Shown here: positions 4,638 to 64,000 of the stretch, in pieces
Layout of the letters: each line of letters begins with the position of its first letter
How positions within the stretch are numbered: the stretch's first letter is position 1
From: Parcubacteria group bacterium
GTDB lineage: Bacteria > Patescibacteriota > Minisyncoccia > Phycocordibacterales > 21-14-all-47-15
Length of the DNA: 64,000 nucleotides
Reading direction: 5' to 3'
Assembly (NCBI GenBank): GCA_016181845.1
Contig: JACOYO010000003.1
Coordinates: 16,185 to 80,184, forward strand
The notes under the pieces: model-generated
The model's database searches: none
What the model was told of the DNA's origin: nothing
What the model saw: the letters and a program-made list of their open reading frames with translations, nothing else
Translations under genes and position numbers: made by a program

Positions 4638-4669
4638 CCGTGAAGGACCGTCCTTCACGGGTGTTTTTG
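4638..4669 (+). repeat. palindromic hairpin plus T-tract (copy of the gtgaaggaccgtccttcac repeat family)
   Basis: ccgtgaaggaccgtccttcacgg then gtgtttttg. Related copies at 7551-7571 and 59039-59053. Confidence 0.5.
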
Positions 4670-4677
4670 ATTCAACA

Positions 4678-4749
4678 AATTCGGCTATCGCATAGCCGAA
4701 TTCGGCAACAAATTCGGCAACAAAAATTCGGCTATCGCATAGCCGAATT
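4678..4749. promoter_or_regulatory. two identical 25-bp palindromes (aattcggctat-cgc-atagccgaatt) bracketing two ttcggcaacaaa direct repeats; putative operator
   Basis: Palindromes at 4678-4702 and 4725-4749, about 140 bp upstream of typA. Confidence 0.4.
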
Positions 4750-4886
4750 TGAATGTTTTGGAAAAACTATACTTTTTCTTTTTGATATGGTATTATGTGG
4801 TTTACTCGCTTAAGGGTCGGTTCAAAATCTCCAAGCGCATGGGGATTTTTTCTTTCAGAAAAGCGCGCGTATTAAAATCTCTACTT

Positions 4887-6683
4887 ATGGACATCCGAAA
4901 CATCGCTATCATCGCCCACGTGGACCACGGGAAGACAACGCTCACCGACGCGATTCTTTCGCAGACCCACGCAGTCGACACCGGCATCAGCATGGACAGC
5001 AACGCGCTTGAGAAAGAGCGTGGCATTACGATTTACTCAAAAAACGCGTCGGTAATCTATAAAGGGACAAAAATAAATATTGTTGATACGCCAGGACACG
5101 CCGATTTCGGTTCCGAAGTGGAACGCGTGCTTCGCTCTATAGACTCGGTGCTTTTGGTGGTGGACGCGCAGGAAGGCCCGATGCCGCAGACACGATTCGT
5201 ATTGAAAAAATCCTTGGCGCTCGGATTGCGCCCAATTTTGGTTATCAATAAAATTGATAAGCCCGCCGCAAACCCCGACCATGTACACAACGAGGTTTTT
5301 GAACTTTTCTCGGAGCTCGGCGCTACGAACGAACAGCTTGATTTCCCGGTCATATACGCTATCGGCCGTGACGGTATCGCGAAAAAAAATCTCACGGACG
5401 ATTCAAAAGATATCACTCCACTTTTGGATATGGTGTTGAGCCATGTGCCAATCGCTTCGGGAAAAGAAAGCGAGCCTTTTTGCGCACAGCCGTTTAATCT
5501 CGCGTATGACAATTTTTTGGGACGGCTTGCTATCGTCCGCGTATATGGCGGCACTCTCGCGCAAGGCGCCGCGGCGTATGTCAAAAAACCGACCGGCCAG
5601 GTAATCAAAGGAAAAATCACAAAGCTTTTCACATTCTCCGGTATTTCACGCGTGGACACCGACACAATAACCGCTGGCGACATTGCAATTATCGCTGGGC
5701 TCCCCGATGCGTACATCGGCGACACAATCACCGATTCTCCGGACGTGCCGCATCTTGAGGCTATCGCCATAGACGAACCGACCATCGAACTGACCTTTTT
5801 AATAAATAATTCGCCTTTCGCTGGACGTGAAGGAAAATTCGTCACCAGCCGCCAGCTCCGCGAACGTCTTGAAAAAGAGCTTGAGGTCAACGTGGGCCTT
5901 AAAGTTGATTTTGATTCCGCAAGCGGAGGTGGCGAACAATTCACCGTCTACGGACGCGGCGAGCTACATATCGCTATTCTTATTGAAAATATGCGGCGTG
6001 AAGGGTACGAGCTTCAGGTTTCTCAGCCGCACGTCATCATGAAGACAATAGACGGCGTACGCCAAGAACCGTTTGAAGAAATTGTGGTTGATGTACCGGC
6101 CGAAATGCAGGGCGTCGTGATTGAAAAACTAAGCGCGCGTGGAGCGATGATGCAAAAAACGCACATGCACGAAAAGCGAATACTCCTTTCATTTGAAGGA
6201 CCGAGTCGCGGACTGTTCGGCTATCGAAACATGTTTATTATAGACACCAAAGGCGAAGGCATCCTTGCTACGCGCACAGTTGGCTATCGTCCGTACGCGG
6301 GAGAAATCGCCCACCGCGACACCGGCTCCATGATTTCACAGGCGGCCGGAAAAGCCGTCGCGTTTGCTTTGGACAACCTACAGAATCGCGGCACCCTCTA
6401 TATCAAAGAAAATACCGAGGTATACGAAGGCATGATTATCGGCAACACAACCAAAGGCGACGAGCTGACTGTCAATCCGCTCAAAGGCAAACAGCTCACT
6501 AACATGCGCGCGTCCGGTTCCGACGAAGCGATTCGTCTCGTGCCGCCGCACATCCTCTCCATTGAAAGCGGGCTTGAAATTATGGCTGATGATGAGTATT
6601 TGGAAGTTACACCCAAAAGCGTCCGCTTGCGAAAAAAATATCTCACCGAAAACGACCGCGCCAAAGCGCGCAGGAAAGAATAG
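4887..6683 (+). CDS. typA: translational GTPase TypA/BipA
   Basis: Start moved to MDIRNIAIIAHVDHGKTTLTD (G1 motif); DTPGHADF (G3), NKIDK (G4). 599 aa, EF-G-like domains. Confidence 0.9.
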   Translation: MDIRNIAIIAHVDHGKTTLTDAILSQTHAVDTGISMDSNALEKERGITIYSKNASVIYKGTKINIVDTPGHADFGSEVERVLRSIDSVLLVVDAQEGPMPQTRFVLKKSLALGLRPILVINKIDKPAANPDHVHNEVFELFSELGATNEQLDFPVIYAIGRDGIAKKNLTDDSKDITPLLDMVLSHVPIASGKESEPFCAQPFNLAYDNFLGRLAIVRVYGGTLAQGAAAYVKKPTGQVIKGKITKLFTFSGISRVDTDTITAGDIAIIAGLPDAYIGDTITDSPDVPHLEAIAIDEPTIELTFLINNSPFAGREGKFVTSRQLRERLEKELEVNVGLKVDFDSASGGGEQFTVYGRGELHIAILIENMRREGYELQVSQPHVIMKTIDGVRQEPFEEIVVDVPAEMQGVVIEKLSARGAMMQKTHMHEKRILLSFEGPSRGLFGYRNMFIIDTKGEGILATRTVGYRPYAGEIAHRDTGSMISQAAGKAVAFALDNLQNRGTLYIKENTEVYEGMIIGNTTKGDELTVNPLKGKQLTNMRASGSDEAIRLVPPHILSIESGLEIMADDEYLEVTPKSVRLRKKYLTENDRAKARRKE

Positions 6684-7528: not shown

Positions 7529-7581
7529 AAACACCTCTGTGAAGAGCCGTTTGTGAAGGACCGTCCTTCACAGAGGTGTTT
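7528..7581. repeat. nested palindrome containing the gtgaaggaccgtccttcac repeat, with alternative pairings
   Basis: aaacacctctgtgaag...tgtgaaggaccgtccttcacagaggtgtttt. Either tgtgaag copy can pair with the single cttcaca, so the two hairpins are mutually exclusive. Confidence 0.45.
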
Positions 7582-9573: not shown

Positions 9574-9592
9574 ATGGACATCCGATGTCCAT
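9574..9592. repeat. palindrome atggacat-ccg-atgtccat overlapping the UDG stop codon
   Basis: Core ggacatcNgatgtcc is shared with 63635-63661. Confidence 0.5.
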
Positions 9593-10227
9593 CATTTTAA
9601 TGTATGGTTATTATTTGTGATTGATACAAGAATCTTTTTTATGATCTTAAAATCGTTTTTGAGCGTGCCGCGCATACTGCCGTTGTAGAGCGCAACTGCC
9701 GGATGATAGAGCGGGATGAGTGTTACCGCGCCGTAAGCAGTTTTTCCTTCAAACGACGCGCCGTGCAAAACACTGATCGGCTTCAACGCCGAAGCAAGCC
9801 CTAAATGTTCAAAAATATATTTCATTGAATAACGCCCGAGGGTCGCGATAACGCGCGGTCGTATAATTTCTATTTGCCGATTTAAAAAAGGAGCATACAG
9901 GGCGATTTCTTCAGGAATCGGGTCACGATTGTCTTGCGGTCTATCTTTCACGATGTTGGTGATATAAACATCTGCCCGCAAAAGTCCGATACTTTCAAGA
10001 AGCGTGTCAAGCATTTTCCCAGCCGCGCCGCAAAACGGCCGCCCAGAAAGCGCTTCTTTTTCTCCTGGCGCTTCGCCGATAAACATAATTTTTGCGTCGT
10101 GGCTTCCATCTCCAAGCACTGGGTAATAGTTGTTTTGTTTCCGATATTTATACAGCGAAGAATCGGTGAGATTCCACACCTCGTCGCGTATTGCTCGAAG
10201 TTGTTCTGTCTTACTTTCTTGTTGCAT
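9592..10227 (-). CDS. uracil-DNA glycosylase, family 4
   Basis: Start moved to MQQESK... Family-4 motifs IGEAPGEKE and GRPFCGAAG are present, plus a C-terminal HPAV/HPSP-like segment. Confidence 0.8.
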   Translation of the reverse strand: MQQESKTEQLRAIRDEVWNLTDSSLYKYRKQNNYYPVLGDGSHDAKIMFIGEAPGEKEALSGRPFCGAAGKMLDTLLESIGLLRADVYITNIVKDRPQDNRDPIPEEIALYAPFLNRQIEIIRPRVIATLGRYSMKYIFEHLGLASALKPISVLHGASFEGKTAYGAVTLIPLYHPAVALYNGSMRGTLKNDFKIIKKILVSITNNNHTLK

Positions 10228-10260
10228 ATTTGTATCGTAGCACAAACCAAACATGAATAA

Positions 10261-10309
10261 CTTGGAGGTCGAGACTTGGAGGCTCAACCTCCAAGTCTCG
10301 ACCTCCAAG
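10261..10309. repeat. 49-bp perfect palindrome (22-bp arms) in a divergent promoter region
   Basis: cttggaggtcgagacttggagg-ctcaa-cctccaagtctcgacctccaag. Confidence 0.6.
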
Positions 10310-10396
10310 TGATTGCTCCACATAAAAAGCTGTGCTACACTGCCGGTTTAGATAGAAAGTCTTTTGTCATTATCAACAACAAGATGGAGGAGTGTG

Positions 10397-13589: not shown

Positions 13590-13639
13590 ACTTAGTGGTT
13601 GAACCTCTCAGTGAAAGACTATGCCAGTATACTGGCATA
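13590..13639. repeat. composite dispersed repeat: acttagtggttgaacc... palindrome (R2) next to the tatgccagtatactggcata palindrome (R1)
   Basis: The same R2+R1 juxtaposition recurs at 46704-46785. Confidence 0.6.
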
Positions 13640-19821: not shown

Positions 19822-20213
19822 ATTTTTTTAGAATTATGGTTTTGATATTGCTCCAGACCTTTTTCTAGAGCGCGGTACGCGAGAAGAGCGCACGGCTCAC
19901 GCGCAGGATTTATTGAAGAAATACCGAGCAACATATATATGTCTTTTGGTGTTATTTTTTGGAGTTCTTTTTTGGTCATCCCTTTTATTTTTTCAGTAAG
20001 AAGCGACGCTCCGGCTTGGCTGATAGCGCATCCGCTCCCATCAAATGAAACCTCTTTAGCACGCCCGCTCGCGTCAAAAAGTATATAGAGCACGAGCGTA
20101 TCGCCACACGACGGATTTGAACCGTCTTGTTTGATATCAAACAAAAGAAGCGCGCCTTTGTTCCGCGGATTTCTATAATGGTCTAAAATATGTTCTTTGT
20201 ATAATTCTTCCAT
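19818..20213 (-). CDS. sufU: SufU/IscU-type Fe-S scaffold (NifU N-terminal-like)
   Basis: NPSCGD...GSGCAISQA... provides the cysteine ligands of the SufU type. Confidence 0.8.
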   Translation of the reverse strand: MEELYKEHILDHYRNPRNKGALLLFDIKQDGSNPSCGDTLVLYILFDASGRAKEVSFDGSGCAISQAGASLLTEKIKGMTKKELQKITPKDIYMLLGISSINPAREPCALLAYRALEKGLEQYQNHNSKKI

Positions 20214-21748: not shown

Positions 21749-21819
21749 TATACCTAAAATATGACGAATTGTAAATAAACTACACTAAAATTATTAACAT
21801 ATCTTGTCTACTATGCCAG

Positions 21820-21843
21820 TATACTGGCATAGTGAAGATAAGA
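21820..21843. repeat. R1 palindrome copy (actatgccagtatactggcatagt)
   Basis: 24-bp perfect palindrome between sufB and rpoD. Confidence 0.6.
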
Positions 21844-32354: not shown

Positions 32355-33599
32355 TTATATATTTTTATTTTGCATTCTTCGCTTTCGATGAAAACTTATG
32401 GCAAACCGATGGGCTTCGGCATTTGCAAAGAGGATATCAGCTTCGTGCCGTATCGCGAGCACGCGGTCGCCGATGATTTTTTTCGGGCGATGACGCTCGT
32501 CTTTGACCACGCCGACCACAGGGATTGCCACGCCAGCCGAAACAAGCGCGTGCTTCGCCGCATTCACTTGCGCGGTTCCGCCGTCAACAACAATCAAACG
32601 TGGCAGTGGCCACTCGGCATGCGCAAGCCGTCGCGAAAGAATTTCTGACAGCGCGCGCGTATCATTCACCCCTTCAAAACTCTTTATATTAAATTTCCGA
32701 TACTCATTTTTTTGTGCCTCGCCGCCCTCAACAACTGTCATCACGCCAACAGACGCTGAACCTGAAAAATGCGCCACGTCATACGCTTCTATTTTGAAAG
32801 TAGAATATGAAAAGTTGAGAGTCGGCGTATTTTTGATAAGAGAAACATCTTGAATATGTTTCAGCGCAAAAATAGTTTTTTTAATTTCATGCGCGCGTTC
32901 AAATGCGCGGTGTTTTGCCGCTTCTCGCATCTCCCGCTCCAATTTTTTAATAAGCATGCCTTTTTTTCCTTCAAAAAAAAGTTTCAGATTTTGTATGATT
33001 TTTGCGTATTCTTTTTTTGAAATCGCTCCAGTGCATACGCCAGGGCATAACCCTATTTGAGTATTAAAACAGGGCTTTTCTTGCCTAAGACGGCATACAT
33101 CGCGAAATGGAAAAATTTTTCTCACAATTTTCAACGCTTCTCGAAGCTGGTTGCCATATGTAAAAGGACCGAATACGTCTTTGACTTGGACGTCGGGTTT
33201 CCAAGTTAACTTGGAAACCCGACGTCCAAGTAGTTCACGTTCCCGCGCCAGAAGCACTCGCGGAAAATCTTCGTCGGTAATGACGACATAATTAAAGCTT
33301 TTGTCGCTCTTTTCTTTTGAATTGTATTTCGGTTGGTGTTTTTTTATCAGCGCCGCTTCAAGAATGAGCGCTTCAAGCACTGAATCGGTTTCTACCACGC
33401 GCACATCACGCGCTTGTTCGAGCATCTCCGCAATAATTGGCCCGCGGGCGCTCATGAGATCCGACGAAAAATAACTTCTTATCCTATCACGAAGCGATGT
33501 CGCCTTACCGATATACAAAATATCTTTTCGCGCGCCCAAAAACTGATACACTCCAGGCGTATCCGGCAAATTTATTTTATTTAGTCGATTTTTTTGCAT
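32355..33599 (-). CDS. uvrC: excinuclease ABC subunit C, short form (GIY-YIG plus RNase-H-like endonuclease domain, no C-terminal (HhH)2)
   Basis: N-terminal GIY-YIG (PGVYQFLG...ILYIGKA) and a C-terminal VVDGGTAQVNAA... domain. 414 aa. Overlaps the uvrA stop. Confidence 0.8.
   Translation of the reverse strand: MQKNRLNKINLPDTPGVYQFLGARKDILYIGKATSLRDRIRSYFSSDLMSARGPIIAEMLEQARDVRVVETDSVLEALILEAALIKKHQPKYNSKEKSDKSFNYVVITDEDFPRVLLARERELLGRRVSKLTWKPDVQVKDVFGPFTYGNQLREALKIVRKIFPFRDVCRLRQEKPCFNTQIGLCPGVCTGAISKKEYAKIIQNLKLFFEGKKGMLIKKLEREMREAAKHRAFERAHEIKKTIFALKHIQDVSLIKNTPTLNFSYSTFKIEAYDVAHFSGSASVGVMTVVEGGEAQKNEYRKFNIKSFEGVNDTRALSEILSRRLAHAEWPLPRLIVVDGGTAQVNAAKHALVSAGVAIPVVGVVKDERHRPKKIIGDRVLAIRHEADILFANAEAHRFAISFHRKRRMQNKNI
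33185..33230. repeat. 46-bp perfect palindrome inside the uvrC coding sequence, in frame
   Basis: cttggacgtcgggtttccaagtt|aacttggaaacccgacgtccaag encodes LGRRVSKLTWKPDVQ. The cttgga(g/c)gtcg...ccaag theme is shared with 10261-10309. Confidence 0.6.
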
Positions 33600-36244: not shown

Positions 36245-36296
36245 TAATTTTTCCTGCGACTATGCCAGTATACTGGCATAGTCGCAGGAAAAATTA
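36245..36296. repeat. 52-bp perfect palindrome carrying the R1 core (tatgccagtatactggcata)
   Basis: taatttttcctgcgactatgccagta|tactggcatagtcgcaggaaaaatta. It makes the track ORFs 36016..36297(+) and 36244..36432(-) end in the same peptide. Confidence 0.7.
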
Positions 36297-40960: not shown

Positions 40961-40989
40961 TTCACTTAGTGGTTGAACCACTAAGTGAA
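40961..40989. repeat. R2 palindrome copy (ttcacttagtgg-ttgaa-ccactaagtgaa)
   Basis: 29 bp; related copies at 13590-13616, 46733-46755 and 49951-49976. Confidence 0.6.
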
Positions 40990-46703: not shown

Positions 46704-46785
46704 TATGCCAGTATACTGGCATAGTCTTTGTCACTTAGTGGCTCAACCACTAAGTTGATACTGAGAGGTTGAGCCACTAAGTTTG
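46704..46785. repeat. composite dispersed repeat: R1 palindrome (46704-46723), then R2 palindrome (46733-46755), then a partial R2
   Basis: tatgccagtatactggcata ... acttagtggctcaaccactaagt ... ttgagccactaagt. Confidence 0.6.
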
Positions 46786-49950: not shown

Positions 49951-49976
49951 ACTTGGTGGTTAAACCCCCAAGTGAA
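49951..49976. repeat. R2-variant palindrome (acttggtggttaaacccccaagtgaa)
   Basis: Degenerate relative of acttagtggttgaaccactaagtgaa. Confidence 0.45.
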
Positions 49977-63322: not shown

Positions 63323-64000
63323 TCAAACTATCTCTTTCATATCGTTTGTCAAATGAGCGCGGACTATCGTTTCTACCTCACGAGCGTCTTTTGCTTCCAT
63401 CAATTTCGTGCGCAATTCTTTTGCCCCATCAAACCCATTCACATACGCTTTGTAATGTTTTTTCATAATGGCAAAATTTTTATGCGCGCCGAGTTCTTTT
63501 TCAAAAAGTTTTGTATGCTCAACCATCACACGAAGTTTTTCTTCAATTGTAATCTCTTTTTGAATTTCCTTTTGTTTCGATAAACCTTGCGATATATCGC
63601 AAGGTTTTGATTTTGATTTTTTATCATCAGTCAGAATGTTGGACATCGGATGTCCAACATTTGCGAAAAGCCACGGGTTGCCGAATATTGCGCGTCCAAA
63701 CATAACACCGTCGGCGCCAGTCGCGCGCGCTTTTTCTTTAGCGTCTGCCATGTCTTTCACGTCGCCGTTTCCGATGATGAGCGCGCCAGTTCCCTTCGCA
63801 AGATCCACCGCACGCGCAACCCGATCCCACTGCGCCGGCGCTTTTGACATTTCTTTTCTCGTGCGCGCGTGAATCGTAAGCGCGGCGATACCGGTTTCCA
63901 AAAGTGCCGGAATCCACGCTTCCGTTTCGTCTTTGTTGTAGCCCACGCGCGTCTTAACCGACACCGGCAAATCACCGGCGCCCTCTTTTGCGGCATAAAT
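63323..64000 (-). CDS. dus: tRNA-dihydrouridine synthase, C-terminal part (5' end beyond window)
   Basis: ...VKTRVGYNKDETEAWIPALLETGIAALTIHARTRKE... is the Dus TIM-barrel and FMN region. Frame is open to the window edge. Confidence 0.75.
   Translation of the reverse strand: MYAAKEGAGDLPVSVKTRVGYNKDETEAWIPALLETGIAALTIHARTRKEMSKAPAQWDRVARAVDLAKGTGALIIGNGDVKDMADAKEKARATGADGVMFGRAIFGNPWLFANVGHPMSNILTDDKKSKSKPCDISQGLSKQKEIQKEITIEEKLRVMVEHTKLFEKELGAHKNFAIMKKHYKAYVNGFDGAKELRTKLMEAKDAREVETIVRAHLTNDMKEIV
63635..63661. repeat. 27-bp palindrome inside the dus coding sequence, in frame
   Basis: aatgttggacat-cgg-atgtccaacatt encodes NVGHPMSNI. Its core ggacatcNgatgtcc is shared with 9574-9592. Confidence 0.55.

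Follow-up and report, generated by a model that had tools for sequence, protein, structure and literature searches.

In Rickettsia, selfish palindromic elements (RPE) occur in frame in coding genes, essential ones included, where they add a surface peptide and leave the fold intact. The cyanobacterial SDR elements of Elhai et al. (2008) are reportedly hairpin repeats of 21-27 nucleotides (nt) that show compensatory changes, are self-nested and occur inside genes, and to our knowledge no dedicated transposase has been identified for them. The REP (repetitive extragenic palindrome) sequences of Escherichia coli and the REPINs of Pseudomonas are short dispersed hairpin repeats, present as singlets and inverted doublets and associated with tyrosine transposases (RAYT; TnpA-REP in E. 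coli, PDB 4ER8). REP superfamilies are defined by a GTAG or CGTC tetranucleotide at the hairpin foot, and intragenic REPs are described, notably in excision-repair genes (PMC3733652, where the Rickettsia elements are cited as well). The present analysis concerns a 64,000-nt stretch of the genome of a Parcubacteria group bacterium (contig JACOYO010000003.1; the whole stretch is called the window) and a perfect palindrome that lies in frame within its dus gene, encoding tRNA-dihydrouridine synthase. The palindrome is, with good probability, an intragenic copy of a REP-like family spread across the Patescibacteria (CPR, for candidate phyla radiation) and cognate to a RAYT-type Y1/HUH transposase of ~225 amino acids (aa). 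It belongs to a dispersed hairpin-repeat family tied physically to a Y1/HUH transposase-like gene, and copies of the family are mostly extragenic and repeatedly in frame at permissive sites.

The dus palindrome (palindrome 1) occupies window positions 63635-63661, with the sequence AATGTTGGACATCGGATGTCCAACATT, and is perfect over 27 nt in a 13+1+13 arrangement, AATGTTGGACATC-G-GATGTCCAACATT, built on the core GGACATC-S-GATGTCC. It is read on the minus strand of the dus open reading frame (ORF) and, as a preliminary description of the sequence had stated, is in frame and encodes the peptide NVGHPMSNI. The minus-strand frame (63323-64000; Pfam PF01207, E 7.8e-35) runs from 64000 down to a stop at 63323 and holds the C-terminal 225 codons of the gene, which extends past the window end. 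The full-length protein is P0001, of 357 aa, with nearest named relatives in Candidatus Lloydbacteria (P-numbers denote proteins and L-numbers fetched loci; L001 is the source genome and includes ~4 kb past the window). The same description placed a related core over the end of a family-4 type uracil-DNA glycosylase (UDG) gene (9592-10230, minus strand; PF03167, E 1.2e-33; start codon uncertain), and this too was confirmed: positions 9574-9592, ATGGACATCCGATGTCCAT, form a perfect 9+1+9 palindrome, ATGGACATC-C-GATGTCCAT, an extragenic copy that abuts the gene and overlaps its stop codon TGA (9592-9594, minus strand) by one base, the final base of the palindrome serving as the first of the codon. 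The two sites have 17 positions in common, TGGACATC-N-GATGTCCA, not merely 15, and since the plus-strand centre is G in dus and C at UDG, the element lies in opposite orientations. The 15-nt core GGACATCNGATGTCC has 2 matches in the window and 0 in all 100 dinucleotide shuffles.

Beyond the window, the core TGGACATC[C/G]GATGTCCA, scanned as TGGACATCNGATGTCCA in one genome per species, was found at at least 115 genome loci (counts are lower bounds, with the sampling order unknown), nearly all of them in Patescibacteria of many classes; the suspicion that the recurrence is systematic was thereby justified. Among the listed loci, 86 are labelled Patescibacteria, 14 are an unlabelled "bacterium" and 15 belong to other phyla. 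The groups that bear the core include Saccharibacteria, Paceibacterota/Parcubacteria, Moranbacteria, Nomura-, Kaiser-, Giovannoni-, Niyogi-, Nealson- and Falkowbacteria, and Minisyncoccia. Of 100 listed Patescibacteria sites, 97 have C or G at the centre, compared with 8 of the 15 other sites; in the latter A/C/G/T number 5/4/4/2, as expected if only those non-Patescibacteria sites were chance matches. The palindrome runs at least 3 nt past the core in 67 of the 100 listed Patescibacteria sites (chance, 1.6%), and the sequence of the outer arms beyond the core varies between loci. In full, the element most often reads ACTTGGACATCCGATGTCCAAGT / ACTTGGACATCSGATGTCCAAGT, and the feet differ in other variants. 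A 21-nt form, GTTGGACATCNGATGTCCAAC, was found at 80 metagenome loci, for which a chance estimate gives about one or fewer, and the exact dus 27-mer is present also in L079, L093 and ~10 metagenome loci.

The link to a transposase rests on position and on similarity. Core pairs 690-750 nt apart bracket an ORF of ~225 aa, and a hidden Markov model (HMM) detects this RAYT-like ORF at 15 of the 115 listed genome loci and 12 of the 80 metagenome loci. Both ends of the ORF have a palindrome within 25 nt in L034, L083, L026, L130 and L198, whereas in L073, L114, L127, L168, L170, L195, L200 and L163 this holds for one end; in L034 the copies stand 9 nt ahead of the ATG and 3 nt past the stop. The encoded proteins match Pfam Y1_Tnp (PF01797, IS200-like) with E down to 2.9e-10, seven of nine above the cut-off, and the HUH motif NHYHLL and the sequence YIHxNP are visible in their alignment. 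For a model of P0241 (predicted local distance difference test, pLDDT, 84.7), Foldseek ranks 4ER8_A first among solved structures (E 1.7e-5, probability 1.0), an entry in which the RAYT of E. coli is complexed with a REP hairpin; the ISDra2, IS608 and IS200 transposases come next. The best NCBIfam match, REP_Tyr_transpos, stays below its cut-off (36-41 bits against 80) and a PDB sequence search with the RAYT-like protein returned no meaningful match, so that the protein is a distant RAYT member. The family comprises more than 3000 clusters, named "transposase" in Parcubacteria/Patescibacteria records. The dus element itself is part of this association: in L163 the exact dus 27-mer stands just upstream of the start of the RAYT-like gene and again within it, in frame as NVGHPMSNI, and the repeat flanking the L114 gene is the variant found in the dus gene of L003. 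Directly upstream of dus, three relatives of the source genome have a RAYT-like ORF (L003:1-345 and L005:3-224, partial at the contig end; L007:3300-3980, complete), each with its own palindrome variant (ACTTGGAGATGCGATCTCCAAGT, ACTTGGGGATGCGATCCCCAAGT and ACTTAGGGGTTCNACCCCTAAGT).

Several RAYT-like genes contain their cognate palindrome in frame (L163:480-780, L054:5488-6212, L007:3300-3980, L081:933-1586, L083, L034 and L119). The first such site is a loop at about residue 50, before the HUH motif, where the peptides LDIGCP, MDIRCP, NVGHPMSNI, LGHRMSK, LRGSTPK and LGGPTAK are encoded, and one subgroup has a second in-frame copy at about residue 155-160. These copies are near-perfect DNA palindromes, and for a given gene the internal and the flanking copies agree in variant. 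The encoded peptide is intact in 25 of the 120 top members of the family, with decayed versions in many more, and the palindrome loop is the sole low-confidence segment of the structural model. CRISPR or TIGR arrays were considered for the clustered copies and rejected: spacing is irregular (19 to 730 nt) and the copies bracket transposase genes.

The resemblance to REP/RAYT systems is thus manifold: a short dispersed hairpin repeat in singlets and inverted doublets, a location apparently mostly just downstream of genes, a Y1/HUH transposase-like gene flanked by the same repeat (the REPtron layout, here seen in other Patescibacteria genomes), and 4ER8 as the best solved structural match of the protein. 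The perfect palindromes of 27 and 19 nt, with stable predicted hairpins, also agree with a hairpin-forming repeat of 20-40 bp; as to copy number, the 64 kb of the source genome hold 2 core copies and 6 of a wider ACTTRG...CYAAGT superfamily. There are differences as well. The copies here are perfect palindromes with 0-3 nt at the centre, whereas REPs have imperfect stems; a single conserved core spans classes of a phylum, whereas REPs are species-specific; and the protein is larger, with a C-terminal extension, is more distant in sequence and has the repeat in frame inside its own gene. IS200/IS605 elements likewise employ a Y1/HUH enzyme that acts on single-stranded hairpins, and the TnpA proteins of IS608 and ISDra2 follow directly after 4ER8 in the structural comparison. 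However, those elements have unlike left and right subterminal hairpins that move with the gene, whereas here the same palindrome stands at both ends and solo copies abound.

In dus, the palindrome is part of a lineage-specific, in-frame insert of 31-32 codons (63569-63661, minus strand), delimited by codon alignment against L004-L007 and by protein alignment. The insert (93-96 nt) is composed of palindrome 1, an A-rich spacer, a second palindrome and a short duplicated tail. When 23 Dus orthologs are aligned, the eight closest of which are 83-91% identical to the window protein outside the linker, the linker from ...GNPWLF to EITxEEKL has 37 residues in the window and 5 in these eight and in the next outgroups (for example N-AKKK). 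The preliminary description had named two findings that would together undo the link, conservation of the segment in the Dus family and a core no commoner than expected; the alignment shows that the segment is not conserved family sequence, and the core proved far commoner than chance would give. Comparison with solved Dus structures places it in the linker that joins the TIM barrel to the helical domain. An AlphaFold model of the protein (mean pLDDT 84.7) is confident save for residues 1-4 and 247-279, the latter being the insert, where pLDDT falls below 50 and a disordered loop is predicted. Unrelated inserts occupy this point in Parcubacteria Dus proteins that are more distant, and the linker therefore tolerates length change.

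Palindrome 2 of the insert (63582-63607, AAACCTTGCGATATATCGCAAGGTTT, perfect, 26 nt, in frame) is separated from palindrome 1 by 27 nt and had been missed before. It belongs to a family of its own, AAAACCTT-N-CGATATATCG-N'-AAGGTTTT, in which the N:N' pair covaries (G:C in dus, T:A in L001:456-483, A:T in L072), and its 10-nt core has 11 occurrences in 1.4 Mb against 1.3 expected. Some 4 kb past the window end, L001:409-432 and 456-483 are adjacent perfect palindromes (TTTCATACGATATATCGTATGAAA and AAAACCTTTCGATATATCGAAAGGTTTT) that contain the same CGATATATCG core and lie intergenically beside dprA. A fixed composite element of palindromes 1 and 2 was rejected, as the two cores do not occur together at a set distance in other loci.

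Among the aligned orthologs the insert occurs elsewhere only in P0002, from L003. Its counterpart of palindrome 1, ACTGTTGGACATCCGATGTCCAACAGT, differs from that of the window by a paired double change (AAT..ATT to ACT..AGT) that leaves the symmetry perfect. Palindrome 2 is represented in L003 by its left half only, and the window completes it by 12 extra bases with a TATCG direct repeat at the bounds; the insert tail, CAAAAGGAAATT/CAAAAAGAGATT, resembles a local duplication. No target-site duplication is definable in the codon alignment because the empty site is a lysine/A-rich tract. A metagenome scan with the 21-mer for further dus genes with the insert found none among 80 loci, and the history of the insert therefore rests on two lineages. 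In a neighbour-joining tree of few sequences, the sister of P0001 is P0004, which is without the insert, and P0002 is not sister. Over the first 225 codons, the sites that tell L003 and L004 apart side with L004 by 122:20, and they stand at 10:11 (L004:L003) in the 38 codons beside the insert; with few sequences compared, the L003:L004 ratio is 11:10 beside the insert and 39:154 elsewhere (Fisher p = 0.002). An insert shared with a non-sister lineage and set in a mosaic flank points to homologous recombination between related lineages, not to two independent hits, and suggests, on thin evidence, that the insert arrived together with flanking sequence.

Some of these details would also be met if the palindromes had arisen in place, by intra-strand template switching in a fast-evolving linker, with neither mobile element nor enzyme and with the UDG match incidental. 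A palindrome of which L003 has only half, and which 12 repeat-bounded bases complete in the window, is typical of template switching, the tail looks like a local duplication, unrelated inserts mark the same linker in more distant orthologs, and hairpin-templated repair would preserve symmetry as the paired double change does. Template switching can shape copies but cannot account for sequence identity between many loci: unrelated genomes contain the exact 27-mer, which is also found beside or inside RAYT-like genes, the 17-nt core recurs at at least 115 loci across Patescibacteria classes, and palindrome 2 has siblings elsewhere. A purely local origin is therefore quite improbable, being contradicted as a sole explanation.

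Structure in the nucleic acid was considered as well. The predicted folding of both dus strands is far better than that of shuffles (z -6.9 and -6.4), and palindrome 2, followed on the antisense strand by TTTTGATTTTGATTTTTT, scores as terminator-like on the plus strand, antisense to dus, with no other side flagged in dus. The UDG copy extends to 31 nt with one mismatched pair, has A/T runs on either side and a predicted hairpin of -11.8 kcal/mol, and is terminator-like on the plus strand only, not on the UDG sense strand. Like intrinsic terminators, this copy and many other window palindromes stand directly after stop codons and are followed by T-runs; intrinsic terminators, however, are not families common to loci and genomes, and need neither perfect central symmetry nor presence in frame. 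It could be argued from the folding, from the classical terminator position of the UDG copy and from the phylum-wide core, which implies a conserved trans-acting partner, that the structure is functional and was selected in place, as an RNA element governing stability, pausing or translation of dus mRNA, an antisense terminator or the binding site of a conserved Patescibacteria protein that binds DNA or RNA. Yet the nearest dus orthologs lack the insert, so that dus does not need it, and the neighbouring genes are all co-directional, so that no antisense terminator is called for. Rfam gave no match for the element, a gathering-threshold scan of the whole window returning only a tRNA and a permissive scan of 63400-63800 nothing significant. 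A protein operator, moreover, would not need flanks that are symmetric yet unrelated in sequence, and the simplest candidate for the conserved partner is the RAYT-like protein encoded alongside. Selection of the structure in place is thus an unlikely origin for it, and is compatible with a secondary use of REP copies as terminators.

The dus insert has parallels in other core genes. Among the listed sites, 58 of 133 lie inside ORFs of at least 80 aa by a crude ORF calling, and 75 lie outside long ORFs. The in-ORF copies use all three frames, encoding WTSDV(Q/H), xGH(P/R)MSx or xDI(R/G)CP, and the 17-mer core, on inspection, contains no stop codon in any of six frames. Of ten long ORFs that were checked, eight proved to be genuine core genes (UvrA twice, LigA, ThrRS, GluRS, LeuRS, ComEC and GatB); in GluRS, LeuRS, GatB and both UvrA genes the copy falls between Pfam domains. 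One long ORF, L101:3811-5682, reads as a LeuRS editing-domain fragment, then NUDIX, then the LeuRS catalytic and anticodon-binding domains, which may be a domain insertion or an artefact of ORF calling.

The window itself has a further case in uvrC, which the preliminary description had set beside dus. Positions 33184-33231 are a 48-nt perfect palindrome in which the 23-nt unit ACTTGGACGTCGGGTTTCCAAGT and its complement stand inverted to each other; it is read in frame at about residues 123-139, in the stretch that separates the GIY-YIG domain from the UVR domain. The parallel stands: the element is a related one with an ACTTGG...CCAAGT foot, and an ortholog has a core of the dus type at that position. 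At the same codon position, orthologs carry CCCACTTGGAGGTTCAACCTCCAAGTGGG (L206), ACTTGGACATCGGATGcCCAAGT (L203, of the dus family) and ACTTAGGGGTTCTACCCCTAAGT (L204), and L205 has a decayed copy. These variants have in common the foot ACTT(G/A)G...C(C/T)AAGT, encoding LLG...SKL, and from the alignment it looks as if they replace each other in place. An in-frame location is common to these copies and to the Rickettsia elements, which are the classical in-frame case; those of the RPE-1 type, however, are ~100-150 bp long and are not known to have a transposase gene or to occur outside Rickettsia, against 19-31 nt in Patescibacteria here, with no sequence similarity. The SDR elements differ in phylum and in sequences, and nesting is seen here in few loci only (L023, L102, L045 and L052).

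Copies in genes for repair and competence (UvrA, UvrC, LigA, ComEC) call to mind DNA uptake sequences. Those of Neisseria and Haemophilus (DUS/USS) form terminators as inverted pairs, have in-frame copies in variable protein segments and are biased toward repair genes, and Patescibacteria encode competence proteins. The core, conserved across the phylum and present as hairpins at gene ends, might then be the recognition motif of the Patescibacteria competence machinery, accumulating by uptake bias. Known uptake sequences, however, occur about once per kb, have a non-palindromic core and are strongly over-represented as single copies. Here the half-site TGGACAT was found only 5 times outside the two palindromes (both strands), close to chance, and neither TGGACAT nor GGACATC is enriched in the window, which argues against an uptake sequence or any single-site reading; the core has 2 copies in 64 kb, both palindromic, or ~1 per 32 kb. 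Nor would uptake bias predict the tight link to a transposase-like gene, both ends included. An uptake sequence is thus a very remote prospect.

By analogy with E. coli TnpA-REP and the TnpA proteins of IS200/IS605, whose biochemistry is established (PMC3733652), the substrate of the RAYT-like enzyme would be the hairpin folded from single-stranded DNA, with cleavage and rejoining at the hairpin foot. Copies would spread in this way, apparently favouring hairpins and copies that are already present, a preference suggested in the sequences by nested or adjacent copies (L023, L102, L045, L052), by symmetric but unrelated outer arms and by the replacement of variants in uvrC. Most copies, that of UDG included, would land or survive just downstream of genes, where a hairpin with flanking T-runs, as at UDG, could also act as a terminator. 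An intragenic copy would survive only if the insert keeps the frame, brings no stop codon and falls in a region to which extra residues are harmless; the Dus insert, at 31-32 codons in a length-variable linker and predicted to be a disordered loop, conforms in all three respects. Template switching probably perfects and extends the palindromes, as in palindrome 2 of the window compared with L003.

Nested, adjacent or partly duplicated copies are present at L023:~560-640, L102:~5500-5580, L045:3581-3616, L052:7515-7557 and L054:6196-6250, examples being the nested TTTGGACATCC-[ATTTGGACATCCGATGTCCAAAT]-CACATCCGATGTCCAAA and the tandem AGTATAGATGTCCA; their sequences suggest insertion into existing copies, or slippage.

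A number of observations weigh against an intragenic copy of such a family. No RAYT-like gene or fragment was found in the 64-kb window (tblastn and two HMMs, E up to 10), nor upstream of the source dus or in the 4 kb beyond the window (L001), which leaves an active enzyme in this genome conjectural. The density of two core copies in 64 kb is far lower than that of classical REPs. The GTAG or CGTC tetranucleotide of REPs is absent from the foot of the dus, UDG and consensus copies, the recurrent foot here being ACTTRG...CYAAGT or another symmetric sequence, and the dus and UDG copies are without even the commonest ACTTGG foot. Flanks that vary yet stay symmetric would not be predicted from simple cut-and-paste of an invariant unit. 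The dus insert holds a second, unrelated palindrome and duplicated A-rich sequence, and local template-switch events clearly contributed to it. To these may be added the crude ORF calling and the sampling of genomes noted above, and the small number of sequences in the tree and the mosaic test, the segments for which were picked after inspection.

The core copies are not the only palindromes here. The window has 15 perfect ones whose arms reach 9 nt or more with a gap of no more than 1, against 0.9 in shuffles; several fall into families, and the majority are intergenic. The superfamily pattern ACTTRG-N7-13-CYAAGT, with its 6 window copies against 0.02 expected, occurs in 31 variants in the fetched loci. 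Window copies include ACTTAGTGGTTGAACCACTAAGT, with extended arms, at 40961-40989, ACTTAGTGGCTCAACCACTAAGT at 46733-46755 and the imperfect ACTTGGTGGTTAAACCCCCAAGT at 49951-49973. Between the UDG gene and the next gene, a 51-nt palindrome with ACTTGGAGG...CCTCCAAGT units occupies 10260-10310. The longest UDG ORF reaches 10323 by running through it, and the true start is probably an internal Met (MQQESK...); stop-free palindromes can in this way inflate N-termini in automatic gene calls. The most strongly over-represented family of the window, (AC)TATGCCAGTATACTGGCATA(GT), lies at 13620-13639, 21810-21833, 36245-36296 and 46704-46723, all intergenic, with one copy inside a 52-nt perfect palindrome; it is near-absent from the other fetched loci, L172 alone having three copies of its core. 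Further intergenic families are the two-copy GTGAAGGACCGTCCTTCAC (4638-4660 and 7552-7572) and the tandem AATTCGGCTATCGCATAGCCGAATT (4678-4702 and 4724-4750), each with partial direct repeats alongside, and the two-copy AAAATCCCCCGAC..GTCGGGGGATTTT (2119-2163 and 2208-2238). Shorter perfect palindromes are intragenic in a NifU-like gene (TTGTTTGATATCAAACAA, 20127-20144) and near the end of an SDR-family reductase gene (CTTGCTTCAAATGAAGCAAG, 1719-1738).

In summary, REP/RAYT systems, REPtrons and intragenic REPs are already known, and it is a Patescibacteria-wide variant that appears to be undescribed: in the literature searched, neither a description of RAYT or REP elements in Patescibacteria nor the core motif string was found. 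For annotation, many a puzzling insertion or false N-terminal extension of Patescibacteria genes is explained by such palindromes, which are not to be taken as protein motifs or assembly errors; the conserved 17-mer is in addition a simple marker of Patescibacteria DNA in metagenomes. A bolder and rather doubtful extension would be that this is an ancient, phylum-wide hairpin-repeat system, in which the transposase gene carries its own in-frame hairpin as a master copy or autoregulatory site, copies home into hairpins and other copies so that variants swap at fixed positions such as the uvrC codon, and the repeats are a standing source of in-frame linker peptides in Dus, UvrA, UvrC, LigA, the aminoacyl-tRNA synthetases and GatB. 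How REPs spread is not settled, and repeats inside the transposase frame, different variants at one codon position in orthologs and nested copies are natural experiments on target choice and on the co-evolution of enzyme and repeat. As Patescibacteria genomes are tiny, streamlined and thought poor in mobile elements, a class-spanning pair of repeat and transposase in essential genes is unexpected.

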